DNA from: a virus
Taxonomy: Duplodnaviria; Heunggongvirae; Uroviricota; Caudoviricetes
Virus record (IMG/VR): IMGVR_UViG_2671180979_000013
Length of the DNA: 4,491 bases
Direction: 5' to 3' (one strand)
The stretch's first letter is position 1; each line of letters begins with the position of its first letter. The notes under the pieces were generated by a model. It was not told where the DNA came from. It saw nothing but the letters and a program-made list of their open reading frames with translations, and searched no databases. Below, piece after piece: positions 1-4,491 of this stretch. The position numbers were made by a program, and so were the translations under genes.

Positions 1-1184
1 CGGTCCTTCAGGGCGCTGAAGCTGTAGCGAAACCCCACGCCGTTATCATCCACCACCACATCGCTGTTGGTGTACGGCCACACCACATCCGACGGGCGGT
101 CCTGAACGAACGTCAGCGTCTGACCGTTCCATACCGGCATACAGCGCATCGCCGAGCAGAAATCACTGAGAACATCCCACGCCTTACGCTGTTGTGCCAG
201 GTACGCATTGAAGGTCATCCGCGGCTCGGTGCCCCCGAAGCCATCCGGCACCATCTGGTCGCAGTACTGCCCGATGGCATACAGCGCCCACTTGTCCACA
301 TCCGCCGCCCCCAGACGTTTTCCCATGCCGTAGCGCGGGTGAGTCAGCATGTCCCACAGGCACCAGGCAGGGTTGTTGCTGTATGCCGGTTTCAGGCTGC
401 CGTCCCAGATGCCGCTGTAAGTGCGTTTTTCCGGGTCATAGTTTGACGGTACCTGGATGATGCGACCGCGGATATGGTAGTTCACCGTCATCTGCTGACC
501 GCCAAACTGCTCCGCATCCACCTGCAGCCCCACAATCGCCGTGTTCGGGTAGCACTGTTTCACATCGATGATTTCGGTGTATGACGACCAGAGCGTCTTA
601 TTCTGCAACTGGTCCGTGGTGCTGTCCGCTGTCTCCCGGACCATCCGGATGTTAAAAGGACGGGGAGGCAGATTATCCAGAATCACCGACGCCAGGTACT
701 GTGAGGTGGTCTTGCCGTTAATGGTGACATCCTTTTCCGTCATCCATTTACCACCACGCTCAAGCTGAATCAGCAGGCGGACAGACGTCGGGTTACGGTC
801 ACCCTTTGAGGTGGTCTCCACCAGTGACTGCACCCCGAAGGTAACCCGCAGGCGGTCAATGTTCGCGGACGTAATGGTGCGCGTTACCGGCTTTGCCTTC
901 GTCACTTCCACGCCCAGTCCGGTTTCAGCTCCGGAGGACTCAAAGCCTTCCGGTGGTGTCTGCTCCTGCTCCCCAGCGCGCCAGACCGCGGTCACACCGT
1001 GTATCACAGGATTGCCGTCCGTGTCCGTCAGCGGGGTTTTGTTCACCAGGATACTCTGCAGCCCCTTCACCGGGCCTTCTATCGGTCCCTCACCAATCGC
1101 ATCAATCACACTCATCATCTGCGTGGATTTGAGATTGTCCTTCGCCTCGCGCGGTGTGTGCGCCTTGCCGCCACCTTTGCCCAT
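1..1184 (-). CDS. J: Host specificity / tail tip protein J, N-terminal ~394 codons; 3' end lies beyond the window start
   Basis: ATG at 1184..1182 on the minus strand, preceded by AAAGGGTGAG. My translation begins MGKGGGKAHTPREAKDNLKSTQMMSVIDAIGEGPIEGP...SNNPAWCLWDMLTHPRYGMGKRLGAADVDKWALY...CSAMRCMPVWNGQTLTFVQDRPSD, which matches the lambda gpJ N-terminus as I recall it. The frame stays open to position 1. Absent from the ORF track because no stop falls inside the window. Confidence 0.9.
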   Translation of the reverse strand, partial: MGKGGGKAHTPREAKDNLKSTQMMSVIDAIGEGPIEGPVKGLQSILVNKTPLTDTDGNPVIHGVTAVWRAGEQEQTPPEGFESSGAETGLGVEVTKAKPVTRTITSANIDRLRVTFGVQSLVETTSKGDRNPTSVRLLIQLERGGKWMTEKDVTINGKTTSQYLASVILDNLPPRPFNIRMVRETADSTTDQLQNKTLWSSYTEIIDVKQCYPNTAIVGLQVDAEQFGGQQMTVNYHIRGRIIQVPSNYDPEKRTYSGIWDGSLKPAYSNNPAWCLWDMLTHPRYGMGKRLGAADVDKWALYAIGQYCDQMVPDGFGGTEPRMTFNAYLAQQRKAWDVLSDFCSAMRCMPVWNGQTLTFVQDRPSDVVWPYTNSDVVVDDNGVGFRYSFSALKD

Positions 1185-1212
1185 TGTCTCACCCTTTACT
1201 GTGATAACTGTT

Positions 1213-1247
1213 ACGCACAAAAACAACAGGCATCCCGGAGGATGCCT
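1213..1247 (-). terminator. Perfect 9-bp stem / 4-nt loop hairpin followed on the minus strand by TTGTTTTTGTG; intrinsic-terminator-like, about 28 nt upstream of the J ATG
   Basis: Plus strand 1226..1247 is caggcatcc-cgga-ggatgcctg, a perfect inverted repeat. On the minus strand it is followed by ttgtttttgtgcg (plus 1225..1213). Function not demonstrated. Confidence 0.3.
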
Positions 1248-1286
1248 GCATCATGACGGAATAAAACTTCTGAATATCTTCACATT

Positions 1287-1315
1287 TTCACAAACTGACT
1301 GTGGTGCTAATAATT
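1287..1315 (+). promoter_or_regulatory. Candidate sigma70-like promoter on the plus strand, antisense to the tail operon
   Basis: TTCACA at 1287..1292, then a 15-17 nt spacer, then TAATAAT at 1308..1314. Each hexamer matches consensus at about 4 of 6 positions. It sits inside the AT-rich island, so chance matches are likely. Confidence 0.2.
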
Positions 1316-1387
1316 TCTCTGCGTTAATGTTTTTTTGCCCGAGCACCAGAAACAAAAATAACTCCTTAACGTTAATCTTTGTCTGTC

Positions 1388-1420
1388 CCCGCAACTCTGC
1401 GGGATTGTTTTATTCTTTTT
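1388..1420 (+). terminator. Plus-strand intrinsic-terminator-like hairpin with a T-rich tail
   Basis: cccgca (1388..1393), loop actc, tgcggg (1398..1403), then attgttttattcttttt (1404..1420). The T-tract overlaps the complement of the I stop codon. On the minus strand the A-tract precedes the stem, so it is not a terminator for the tail operon. Confidence 0.3.
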
Positions 1421-2099
1421 ACCCCTGCCGCCCGATAACCACAACCTTTCCGCCACCGCCTTCATCACGGGTACTGATGTCCTGGGATATCCGTCGTGAA
1501 CCAACCAGCATTTCACCATAAGGCACCGGCATCGGGTTACCCTGGGCAATCATATTGTCCAGTGAGGAAAAATACGTGTTCTGTTTACCGTTATCCGTTG
1601 CGCGGTAATCCGGTGTTTTTGCCTTCGGTGCCAGCATCTGGGCCACACCGCCCAGTATCATGCTAGCCCCCAGTGAAAACAGCATCGTGGTGGCAGAAAA
1701 ACCACCGGCTGCCAGGGCTGAACCCCATAACGCCATTGATGCCCCGGCCGTGAAGAACGACCCCACGATGGCCGCCGCCCCCAGCACAATCTGCAGTCCG
1801 CCCTTTCCGGCTCCGACCAGTCGCGGCACAATATGGATGACCGCCCCCTCACCCAGAGGTTCGTGAAGACGGGCGTACACCGCCTCCGGTGCCGTGTCCT
1901 CACCGCGAATACGTATCTGGTACCAGCCTTCGTTCATCTGACGGCGAAAGCCCGGCATCTGCATCGACAGGGCACGGATGGCTTCCGCTGCCGTGTTCAC
2001 GTACAGGCTGAGGCGGCGGCCAAATCGTTGCAAATCCCCGTGAAGGCAGATGCGTGCCAGTGGCGGTGACGCCAGACAGAATGCGTTCGTCGTTGCCAT
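1419..2099 (-). CDS. I: Tail assembly protein I (gpI-like), 226 aa
   Basis: Complete ORF in the track. The N-terminus MATTNAFCLASPPLARICLHGDLQRFGRR..., the tract HIVPRLVGAGKGG (Gly-Gly at residues 100-101), a Gly/Ala-rich hydrophobic segment, and the C-terminal NGKQNTYFSSLDNMIAQGN...GEMLVGSRRISQDIST match lambda gpI as I recall it. A GGGAGAGG Shine-Dalgarno-like motif lies upstream of the ATG. The start overlaps the K 3' end by 103 nt. Confidence 0.92.
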   Translation of the reverse strand: MATTNAFCLASPPLARICLHGDLQRFGRRLSLYVNTAAEAIRALSMQMPGFRRQMNEGWYQIRIRGEDTAPEAVYARLHEPLGEGAVIHIVPRLVGAGKGGLQIVLGAAAIVGSFFTAGASMALWGSALAAGGFSATTMLFSLGASMILGGVAQMLAPKAKTPDYRATDNGKQNTYFSSLDNMIAQGNPMPVPYGEMLVGSRRISQDISTRDEGGGGKVVVIGRQG

Positions 2100-2740
2100 T
2101 TTTCAGAATACCTCTCCCGTTTACTCAGTTGTTCAGGCAGATGGTGAAGCAGCTCACCGTTGCCGCAGTATATGGCGGCATGATTGGCCACCGATGCGCC
2201 AAAGCAGCACAGCAGAATATCGCCCGCCTGTGCAGAGGACAGGGGCACCCGGTAAAAGCCGGTGACCGCCATATTGTCCAGGTACAGGTTCTGGCCGTTG
2301 CGCCACCAGTCATCCTCACGCTCAAAATCCGGCATATCAATTCCCGCCAGATGGTAGGCATCCCGGAACAGCGTGTAACAGTCCGTCACCCCGTGCGCAA
2401 AGCGCCGTCCCGTCAGGTGCGGCACACAGCGGAATTTATGAATGTCCCCCCGGCAGACCAGCCACCAGGACAGTGCACTTTTTATCTGCAGCCGCCGGTC
2501 GGCCTCGCTCAGCCAGGGCAGACCACCGGGATGACTGTGGACCAGTGCCACAATCTCCCCCTGCATCTCTGCCCGCAGCCAGTCTTCCGGTGCAATACGA
2601 AAATACGCCTCCGGCTCTGCAGAGATATTCACACAAGGGATATACCGCTCCCCCTCCGGCGTTCTCACCACGAAGCCGCACGACTCCGCAGGCGCACACC
2701 GCCGGGCATGCGCCAGAATCGCTGATTCAGTCTGTGTCAT
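1997..2740 (-). CDS. K: Tail tip assembly protein K (gpK-like) with JAMM/MPN and NlpC/P60 motifs, 247 aa
   Basis: Start taken at the internal ATG 2740..2738 (MTQTESAILAHARRC...), 10 nt after the L stop; the 334-aa track ORF runs further upstream into L in another frame. The JAMM motif H-S-H-x7-S-x2-D is intact (HSHPGGLPWLSEAD; HSH encoded at 2539..2531). An NlpC/P60-like Cys (GVTDCYTLF, C121) and His (ANHAAIYCG, H187) are present. An unusually long lambda-like N-terminus is implied; a later start cannot be excluded. Confidence 0.85.
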   Translation of the reverse strand: MTQTESAILAHARRCAPAESCGFVVRTPEGERYIPCVNISAEPEAYFRIAPEDWLRAEMQGEIVALVHSHPGGLPWLSEADRRLQIKSALSWWLVCRGDIHKFRCVPHLTGRRFAHGVTDCYTLFRDAYHLAGIDMPDFEREDDWWRNGQNLYLDNMAVTGFYRVPLSSAQAGDILLCCFGASVANHAAIYCGNGELLHHLPEQLSKRERYSEKWQRRTHSVWRHRHWHASAFTGICNDLAAASACT

Positions 2741-2750
2741 AAAACAGGAT

Positions 2751-3449
2751 TTACTGCGAAAGTTTATTGATGGAAAGGAAACCGCCAAAATTAGCCACCA
2801 TGCCGCGCATCTCACACCCGCGCATGCACTTGCTGCATCTGTCCTTACGGATATCCGTGGTGGGTTTATCGAACTCATCCGCCACAGCCCCGCCCGTGTA
2901 ACCACACTCATCAGAGCGGTAGGTCCACATACAGGTGTTCGCCAGCATGATACGACCGGGAAACAGCGCTCCGTCCGTCTCCGTCGGTGTTGCCAGCACA
3001 AACGAGGCTGTCATGGCCGTCAGCTCTGACATCTGCTCCACCACCCAGCGGTCGCTCAGCTCCTGCTCCGGGTCCGCTTCCGGATTGCCCGCCACAAAAT
3101 TCACCGCATCCAGAAAACGGGCATACACCCGGCGGCGGACCACCGTGGCCCCCACCAGGCTCTGCAGGTCCTCCGCCATCCCGGTGACCAGACCAAACAG
3201 ATTGGACACCGTCAGCGACGGTCTGGCACTGCTGCCCTTCCCGTTCATCTCAAAACCGCTGCCGTCAATCGGGTATGCCTGATATTGCCGCCCCTGCCAG
3301 GTGACCGGCTCCCCTTTTTCATTCAGCTCATTACAGAAAAAATACCGCTCACCGCCCTGCACCGTCAGGTCAATTTCCCAGAGCACCACCCGCGGTGACT
3401 GCTCTGATTTAACCGACTCGTTCAGACTTTCTTCGTGAATATCCTGCAT
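2751..3449 (-). CDS. L: Tail tip protein L (gpL-like), 232 aa, full length
   Basis: Start at ATG 3449..3447 (MQDIHEESLNE...), overlapping the M stop as ATGA. The first 9 codons of the track ORF 2751..3476 are an upstream extension into M. The C-terminus ...CSKCMRGCEMRGMVANFGGFLSINKLSQ and the conserved tracts VVLWEIDL, GGERYFFCNE, PVTWQGRQYQ and FPGRIMLANTC match lambda gpL as I recall it. Confidence 0.92.
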   Translation of the reverse strand: MQDIHEESLNESVKSEQSPRVVLWEIDLTVQGGERYFFCNELNEKGEPVTWQGRQYQAYPIDGSGFEMNGKGSSARPSLTVSNLFGLVTGMAEDLQSLVGATVVRRRVYARFLDAVNFVAGNPEADPEQELSDRWVVEQMSELTAMTASFVLATPTETDGALFPGRIMLANTCMWTYRSDECGYTGGAVADEFDKPTTDIRKDRCSKCMRGCEMRGMVANFGGFLSINKLSQ

Positions 3450-3475
3450 CAGTTCACCACCTGCTCTATCGTGCA
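2847..3475. repeat. Direct repeat copy A (629 bp): 5' 603 bp of L plus the 3' end of M
   Basis: Hand alignment to 3863..4491 at a constant offset of 1016 bp gives about 26 substitutions and no indels, roughly 96% identity. Confidence 0.9.
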
Positions 3476-3790
3476 ACTGAAATCACTGTACCGGGCATTA
3501 TCCGTGACACTCCACTCACGGCACACAACCCTCACCGTCCGGTTATGTTTCGGCGGTCGCCACAAAAAGGCACGGTAACCACCATGCCACGATAAAAACT
3601 CTTCCAGCCAGCGCCGGGTTGACTCATCCGTCACCCGGAACACCGCCTGAAACGTCTTCAGTTGAGGATTCAGCCCTGTGGGGCGGCGCTGTTCATAACC
3701 GTCACCAAACCGCACCCTCACCACCGACGGCTTCTCACTCACCTGCATCCCTTCACGCGGGACCAGATGCAGCGTTTTTATCTCAGCCAC
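3449..3790 (-). CDS. M: Minor tail protein M (gpM-like), 113 codons, GTG start
   Basis: The C-terminus ...FSCTIEQVVN and the internal VRFGDGYEQR and WHGGYRAFLW tracts resemble lambda gpM. The start codon is GTG at 3790..3788 (checked by hand), preceded by GGAGG with an 8-nt spacer. An in-frame TGA lies immediately upstream of the GTG, so no longer N-terminus is possible. Confidence 0.8.
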   Translation of the reverse strand: MAEIKTLHLVPREGMQVSEKPSVVRVRFGDGYEQRRPTGLNPQLKTFQAVFRVTDESTRRWLEEFLSWHGGYRAFLWRPPKHNRTVRVVCREWSVTDNARYSDFSCTIEQVVN

Positions 3791-3862
3791 TCAGCATTCC
3801 TCCGTCACGTCGCATGGACAGCATCACCGCCTGCACCCGCTGGTCAATCAGCTGCACAAGAA
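3783..3862 (-). other. Orphaned 3'-terminal fragment (about 26 codons) of the gene upstream of M; by lambda gene order this would be the tape measure gene H
   Basis: A minus-strand frame reads ...LVQLIDQRVQAVMLSMRRDGGMLSG* with its TGA at 3785..3783, overlapping the M GTG start (GTGGCTGA). The frame is closed by a stop at 3893..3891, and sequence similarity to copy A ends at 3862/3863. Identification as H is by position only. Confidence 0.4.
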
Positions 3863-4465
3863 ACGGATATCCGTGGTGGGGTTGTCGAACTCATCCGCCA
3901 CAGCCCCGCCCGTGTAACCACACTCATCAGAGCGGTAGGTCCACATACAGGTGTTCGCCAGCATGATGCGACCGGGAAACAGCGCTCCGTCCGTCTCGGT
4001 CGGTGTAGCCAGCACAAACGAGGCCGTCATGGCTGTCAGCTGCGACATCTGCTCCACCACCCAGCGGTCACTCAGCTCCTGCTCCGGGTCCGCCTCCGGA
4101 TTGCCCGCAACGAAATTCACCGCATCCAGAAAACGGGCATACACCCGGCGGCGGACCACCGTGGCCCCCACCAGGCTCTGCAGGTCCTCCGCCATTCCGG
4201 TGACAAGGCCAAACAGATTGGACACCGTCAGCGACGGTCTGGCACTGCTGCCCTTCCCGTTCATCTCAAAGCCGCTGCCGTCAATCGGGTACGCCTGATA
4301 TTGCCGCCCCTGCCAGGTGACCGGCTCCCCTTTTTCATTCAGTTCATTGCAGAAAAAATAGCGCTCACCGCCCTGCACCGTCAGGTCGATTTCCCAGAGT
4401 ACCACACGCGGTGACTGCTCTGACTTAACCGACTCGTTCAGGCTTTCTTCGTGAATATCCTGCAT
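3848..4465 (-). pseudogene. Truncated second copy of L (L'): 202 gpL codons plus 3 unrelated codons (FLCS) and a stop
   Basis: 205-aa track ORF. Residues 1-202 differ from the L copy at 2751..3449 at only 2 positions (E to Q, K to N). The sequence diverges completely after ...PTTDIR, at plus coordinate 3862/3863. The start ATG 4465..4463 overlaps the stop of an upstream M copy as ATGA. Confidence 0.75.
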
Positions 4466-4491
4466 CAGTTCACCACCTGCTCTATCGTGCA
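3863..4491. repeat. Direct repeat copy B (629 bp, runs to the window edge): L' plus the 3' end of a second M
   Basis: Same alignment as copy A. Similarity ends sharply at 3862/3863; plus 3857..3862 caagaa does not match 2841..2846 gtcctt. Confidence 0.9.
4465..4491 (-). CDS. 3' end (last 8 codons plus stop) of a second M copy; the rest lies beyond the window end
   Basis: The reverse complement of 4468..4491 encodes CTIEQVVN followed by TGA (4467..4465), identical to the C-terminus of M at 3449..3790. Confidence 0.5.
   Translation of the reverse strand, partial: CTIEQVVN

Follow-up and report, generated by a model that had tools for sequence, protein, structure and literature searches.

A stretch of tailed-phage DNA 4,491 nucleotides (nt) long (IMG/VR record IMGVR_UViG_2671180979_000013; Caudoviricetes), referred to below in its full length as the window, appears to carry the lambda-type tail-tip gene L twice: once complete, directly downstream of gene M, and once as a shorter upstream version, L′, in an open reading frame (ORF) of 205 amino acids (aa). 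How could a single tail operon come to hold two versions of L that differ almost only at silent sites? An initial annotation, made from the bases alone, regarded L′ as a truncated copy sitting in place and offered two histories for the pair: either both had diverged as functional genes in different phage genomes and were joined later, or a recent duplication had been accompanied by gene conversion. We arrive at a different answer. The two “copies” are very probably the L alleles of two lambdoid prophages resident in one polylysogenic Escherichia coli, brought together by assembly software, and the duplication of L at a single locus is most likely an artefact.

A first line of evidence for this reading lies at position 3862. 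The window is the entire contig CYCT01000156.1 of the E. coli draft assembly GCA_001286285.1, and the public record differs from it at a single base: position 3862 is N in the record and A in the window (T on the coding strand). That N is the exact breakpoint, with codon 201 of L′ (...ATCCGT) on one side and the first base of the tape-measure gene H (TCTTGTGCAGC...) on the other; seen along the window, L runs up to codon 201 (...GATATCCGT) on the right of 3862 and the 3′ end of H (TCTTGTGCAGCTGATTGACC...) lies on its left. All genes in the window are on the minus strand, and the features that bear on the apparent repeat are these:

3863–4491, minus strand: piece A, made up of the last 26 nt of gene M (4491–4466) and codons 1–201 of L allele A (4465–3863), up to the contig end.
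Copy A (within piece A), residues 31–200 matched, minus strand: PF05100 (Phage_tail_L), E=2.6e-79, 265.8 bits.
4465–3848, minus strand: the L-like 205-aa ORF, L′, which reads over position 3862.
3862, no strand: presumed scaffold gap and L′-to-H breakpoint, N in CYCT01000156.1 and A in the window.
3848–3862, minus strand: apparent C-terminal tail of L′ (..R-F/X-L-C-S-stop), H sequence out of frame across the gap.
3783–3861, minus strand: last ~79 nt of gene H, at the start of piece B, identical to the 3′ end of H in the sister contig CYEV01000136.1 (locus L008 of our comparison set) and in many prophages.
2751–3449, minus strand: full-length gene L, allele B, 232 aa, matching the full PF05100 profile (E=9.3e-92, 306.4 bits); its codons 1–201 are copy B (2847–3449).

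Both L copies thus score far above the Pfam cut-off for PF05100, which is 25 bits. From 3861 downwards the sequence matches the 3′ end of H base for base in 18 other loci (L001 and L008 among them), and the tail of L′ (...DIR-FLCS*) is simply this H sequence read out of frame across the gap, which accounts for the finding that the 205-aa product, with residue 202 entered either as F or as X, has no record in an exact protein look-up. The 205-aa “truncated L” is thus an ORF that crosses an assembly gap, and its stop is not a real coding end. The initial view of L′ as a gene copy truncated where it stands is itself unsupported; L′ is most likely an incomplete assembly piece and not a truncated gene.

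What a lone N means in these assemblies can be read from a second case. The only other non-ACGT symbol among the loci that we fetched is a single N in CYAQ01000086.1 (L007), a contig of the same accession series. There the N (L007:5370) replaces 25 nt of gene H that are present in the otherwise identical CYFU01000081.1 (L006:5370-5394), with the result that the annotated H has 1072 aa and not 1080 aa. Since 25 nt are hidden by this one symbol, a lone N in these assemblies marks an unresolved scaffold join and not an ambiguous base call, and it follows from the N at 3862 that the deposited data do not show piece A (3863–4491) to be contiguous with piece B (1–3861). A genuine duplication should give uninterrupted sequence across its novel junction; the deposited contig has an N at that point. 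We infer that this gap symbol, which falls exactly on the junction at one position out of 4,491, is the scaffolder’s trace of two abutting pieces that no read connects.

The edge of piece B itself lies in a variable part of H. Known H alleles (those of L014, L022 and L024 were compared) vary at piece B’s first base (T/C) and at four further sites within 12 nt upstream. Piece B therefore begins at a cluster of polymorphisms, as it should if contig breakage had occurred at a point of divergence between co-resident prophage copies.

Were the tandem arrangement real, its junction might be expected to recur in related genomes or phages, and in our searches it did not. Megablast with a 151-nt junction query found no place with at least 80% coverage in 5,426 complete E. 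coli genomes, the two halves of the query matching only separately; the exact junction 35-mer had no match in the GTDB species representatives; and the junction pattern with N at the gap position had none in IMG/VR or in JGI metagenome contigs. The window with its extra 630 nt was likewise absent from complete E. coli genomes and phage records, where the best matches span ~3,860 nt, that is, a single copy. The closest relative makes the same point: the sister contig CYEV01000136.1 is 99.87% identical to the window over all 3,861 nt of piece B, and upstream of its gene M it carries 1.3 kilobases (kb) of ordinary H with no L fragment, in the normal H-M-L order. On the side of piece A, a 34-mer specific to allele A was absent from the GTDB representatives and present in four IMG/VR contigs, which are only 95-97% identical overall and in all of which H, M and L follow one another in the normal collinear order. 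Taken together, the locus has a gap character at the breakpoint and two pieces that each match ordinary single-copy contexts, as an assembly artefact would.

The genomic setting is one in which such an artefact could readily arise. E. coli genomes that carry this module hold a median of 2-3 copies of it and a maximum of 12-15, and draft contigs with the same M protein are mostly <10 kb, from which it appears that the module routinely fragments in short-read assemblies. The other end of the contig is similar in this respect: the sister contig (at L008:5114) and the window (at position 1) break at the same base in gene J, at about codon 394-395, and this break point, shared by two independent draft assemblies, suggests a repeat boundary common to several prophages of both genomes. 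The few differences between the two contigs are also unevenly placed, with four of the five mismatches lying within 78 nt at 2076–2153 (the 3′ end of K) and the fifth at 975 in J; the cluster could be a small recombination patch or the consensus of collapsed prophage copies.

We then asked what the two versions of L are. Comparison of the window with itself gives a gapless direct repeat of 629 nt (2847–3475 against 3863–4491, offset 1016 nt), free of indels, in which 26 positions mismatch. Instead of stopping at the start codon of L′ (4465), where the initial annotation had placed its limit, the repeat extends another 26 nt to take in the 3′ end of gene M, where 3450–3475 and 4466–4491 agree without a mismatch. 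Its far limit is the last base of the window, so it is ended by the contig end and not by biology. All 26 mismatches fall inside the L frame, between codons 8 and 195 on the minus strand; the first variant lies 50 nt from the contig end and the last 18 nt from the gap, an asymmetric pattern that fits no odd assembler k. The number of codons in common is 201, and not 202 as first counted, since codon 202 of L′ straddles the junction.

Over these 201 codons, copies A and B differ by 24 synonymous third-position changes and two replacements, at codon 142 (GAG/CAG, E142Q) and at codon 195 (AAA/AAC, K195N). This exact recount agrees with the earlier tally of about 26 differences, two of them replacements (E to Q and K to N), without indels, and bears out its central observation that the copies differ almost only silently. 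By the Nei-Gojobori method (S=142.2 synonymous and N=460.8 non-synonymous sites), the synonymous and non-synonymous divergences are dS=0.191 and dN=0.0044, giving dN/dS=0.023, and the share of synonymous changes (24/26) departs strongly from the neutral expectation of 23.6% (binomial test, p=1.7e-13). The codon-aligned comparison that the initial annotation had proposed as a check thus yields a ratio far from 1, and copy A contains neither internal stops nor indels in its 201 codons; the relaxed constraint of a pseudogene, with dN/dS near 1, is not what we see.

For the ancestry of the two alleles, we compared the first 603 nt of L in 19 other prophage or phage loci and in the two window copies, which together make up 12 distinct alleles. 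Copy B is identical over this length to the L of the sister strain, differs at 2 positions from a group of five contigs and at 9 from the allele of complete O111 genomes. Copy A differs at 18 positions from the L of the O111:H8 SF4-1 prophage that carries sodC (L022) and at 20 from that of Sakai Sp10 (range for the Sp10-like alleles, 18-21). Copies that arose by duplication should be each other’s closest relatives; at 26 differences from one another, against 0-9 between B and others and 18 between A and L022, these are not. When sites were bootstrapped, 92% of the resamples put A nearer to the SF4-1 allele (L022) than to B, and 99.9% put B nearer to the O111 allele than to A. The best full-length matches in complete E. 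coli genomes reach 98.6% for B and 97.0% for A, with A and B 95.9% identical to one another. Of the earlier proposals, the idea that the copies diverged as functional genes in different phage genomes is therefore the one that holds up, being supported by the separate nearest alleles and the low dN/dS; the suggested placement among L genes of other prophages did not make the two copies mutual nearest neighbours.

Neither the replacements nor the excess of silent changes is peculiar to this pair. Residues 1–201 of allele A differ from Sakai ECs_1985 only at P48A, and Sakai Sp10 and O111:H8 SF4-1 each have an intact L gene with both Q142 and N195, so both replacements are standing polymorphisms. 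In the 61 allele pairs with at least 10 differences, the ratio of non-synonymous to synonymous differences per site (pN/pS) lies between 0 and 0.14, with a median of 0.056, which makes the synonymous excess between A and B an ordinary one. Nor is allele A a member of the Sp10-like clade throughout. Its 3′ 333 nt (nt 271–603 of L) show 4 differences from the Sp10-like alleles, and its first 270 nt show 12-17 differences from every sampled allele, about equally, with three private synonymous sites (L nt 60, 105 and 123). These split affinities of its 5′ and 3′ parts indicate that allele A is a mosaic.

All of this can be accommodated by a simple course of events. Piece B (1–3861) would be the tail module H′-M-L-K-I-J′ of one prophage, and piece A (3863–4491) would be the end of M plus L codons 1–201 from a second, co-resident prophage. 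The L stretch, at 4% divergence, would assemble as a contig of its own of ~630 nt, while the flanking M and the 3′ end of L with K, near-identical between the prophages, would collapse together; a scaffolding or gap-closing step would then abut A to B with one N, giving the apparent tandem L′-M-L. Each L gene would be, or have been until recently, a functioning tail-tip gene maintained by purifying selection in a phage lineage of its own, and such selection would explain the 24 synonymous changes against two replacements and the lack of indels. We infer from these observations taken together that a second prophage in this genome supplied allele A, and that the scaffolding or gap-closing step made the join. 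Of the two histories offered initially, the later joining of the copies in a genome is not supported, given an N placed exactly at the breakpoint and a junction found in no other genome searched; nor is recent duplication with gene conversion, given that N and copies that group with different prophage clades.

Several points weigh against this account. It presumes that no reads span the junction and that the genome holds a second prophage. Allele A has no exact match elsewhere (at best 97.0-97.1%, in complete E. coli genomes and IMG/VR), and three hypothetical full-length A proteins, composed of residues 1–201 and each of the known C-termini, are absent from a collection of 15 billion proteins. 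Piece A ends 18 nt past the last difference between A and B, which is shorter than a simple de Bruijn bubble arm, so that later trimming or extension has to be assumed. As to the software, a Sanger project on enteropathogenic E. coli (EPEC) used Velvet with Velvet Optimiser (PMC5343136), but its link to GCA_001286285.1 is a guess on our part; the accession string occurs in no paper. GapFiller is described as extending gaps from both edges and closing them only if the extensions merge; single-N remnants are not described there (PMC3446322).

The alternative that takes the join at face value is a real heterologous tandem duplication, in which two lambdoid phages, co-resident or co-infecting, underwent illegitimate recombination that fused codon 201 of L in one phage to a point ~72 nt short of the H end in its partner; the N would then be one uncalled base and the product a prophage with the order M-L′(truncated)-H′(fragment)-M-L-K. 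The two pieces do have the same orientation and stand in register as a 1016-nt tandem unit, 4% divergence would suit two parental phages, and some read-pair signal must have led the scaffolder to join them. A novel junction, however, gives rise to unique k-mers and should be assembled gap-free, yet the contig’s one non-ACGT symbol stands exactly there, and a single N in this accession series is shown to conceal missing sequence. In the sister strain the 99.87% identical module occurs without the arrangement, the junction is absent from the 5,426 complete genomes and three contig collections, and the breakpoint (...ATCCGT|AAGG in L against ...GCAGT|CTTG in H) offers no obvious microhomology beyond 1-2 nt. 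On balance we consider such a recombinant unlikely. Joining mediated by microhomology was considered as a mechanism in its own right and rejected, with at most 1-2 nt in common at the breakpoint. If the join were nevertheless real, the locus would hold a heterologous 1,016-nt tandem unit (H′-M-L′) formed in a lambdoid prophage by illegitimate recombination between two phages. Upstream of a complete M-L-K-I-J module there would then be 201 codons of L captured from a different lineage, and the locus would catch non-homologous mosaic formation in the act within an essential tail operon, as a modest example of phage mosaicism and not a new kind of system.

Misassembly would also follow if piece A came from a contaminating second strain or phage in the sequencing library and had been scaffolded in the same way. 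The lack of an exact match for allele A in any collection searched would agree with a foreign source, but several module copies (2-15) are the norm in E. coli that carry the module, so that no contaminant is needed, and relatives of the module adjoin NleB/NleG effector genes typical of the multi-prophage genomes of enteropathogenic and enterohaemorrhagic E. coli (EPEC/EHEC); we regard contamination as very unlikely. Least probable of all, to the point that we give it hardly any credence, is a tandem duplication in place within a single phage, with the upstream copy decaying as a pseudogene or kept similar by gene conversion. The direct-repeat geometry is the one feature that speaks for it. Neutral decay cannot account for a dS of 0.19 combined with a dN/dS of 0.023 and the absence of indels. 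The affinities of the two copies lie with different prophage clades, and an N stands at the junction. RecA-mediated deletion threatens the long-term survival of 4%-diverged 1-kb tandem repeats, and a duplication of this age would have had to escape it for long. Gene conversion was rejected for its own reason: it would homogenise the copies, and instead there are 24 evenly spread synonymous differences between alleles of different clades.

The probable joining of two prophage alleles during assembly leaves the rest of the window, piece B, as an ordinary tail module in the lambda tail-tip gene order. Besides L, it contains the following:

3449–3790, minus strand: gene M, minor tail protein, 113 aa (PF05939, E=3.3e-29).
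1997–2740, minus strand: gene K, JAB/MPN plus NlpC/P60 tail protein, 247 aa (PF14464, PF00877).
1419–2000, minus strand: gene I, tail assembly protein, 193 aa as in the annotation of relatives (PF06805).
1–1184, minus strand: 5′ part of gene J, tip attachment protein, first ~394 codons, running off the contig end (PF24801, PF13550).

The stop codon of H overlaps the GTG start of M. The exact M protein is found in 12,870 blocks of the protein collection, and the exact full-length L protein in 15 contigs, with the order M-L-K in every one. Gene I has a second possible start, an ATG at 2099, which would give 226 aa and an overlap of ~100 nt with K; relatives are annotated with 193, 210 or 226 aa. 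Between I and J lies a non-coding spacer of 234 nt (1185–1418). In Sp10-like prophages (L022, L023) this spacer is longer and carries the Cu/Zn superoxide dismutase gene sodC on the opposite strand, and in another locus (L012) it holds an IS21-family element. The spacer thus looks like a hotspot for cargo insertion that is empty in this prophage.

The locus is best seen as a cautionary case. An N rendered as A hides an assembly gap, so that a reader who has only the bases takes a scaffold join for a gene duplication, and that misreading then attracts real population-genetic interpretation. What the divergence of the two alleles teaches is not new: it is established that the L genes of lambdoid prophages resident in one host are mosaics and diverge by a few percent, nearly always at synonymous sites. 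The masked gap at 3862 may also affect other readings of this window that speak of an “L duplication” or of a “205-aa truncated L”.

Compared with known systems, copy B is a relative of lambda gpL (PF05100; PDB 8iyk, 8iyl, 8k35, 8xcg and 9e7m). Its 232 aa align from 1–232 to residues 1–232 of 8iyk_L (E=1.7e-124), and the C-terminal CxxC...C cysteines of gpL are present and aligned (C205/C208/C212); this cysteine motif is said to bind an Fe-S cluster. Copy A ends at residue 201, before the cysteines, because the assembly piece ends there. Copy B stands in the canonical M-L-K-I-J order, as in lambda, whereas all that can be seen upstream of copy A is the last 26 nt of an M gene. Both L alleles of the window are of the type found in lambdoid prophages of EPEC/EHEC E. 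coli, with ~75-80% protein identity to lambda gpL by a hand count from the alignment. The L genes of Sakai O157:H7 Sp10 (ECs_1985) and of SF4-1 have Q142 and N195 in common with allele A, and differ from it overall by 18-20 nt. For the arrangement as a whole, the closest likeness is to mis-scaffolded multi-copy prophage modules in short-read drafts, which likewise show a gap symbol at the breakpoint and contig ends inside repeats, and the likeness extends to the sister assemblies, one of which breaks at the same base of J and another of which hides 25 nt behind a single N.

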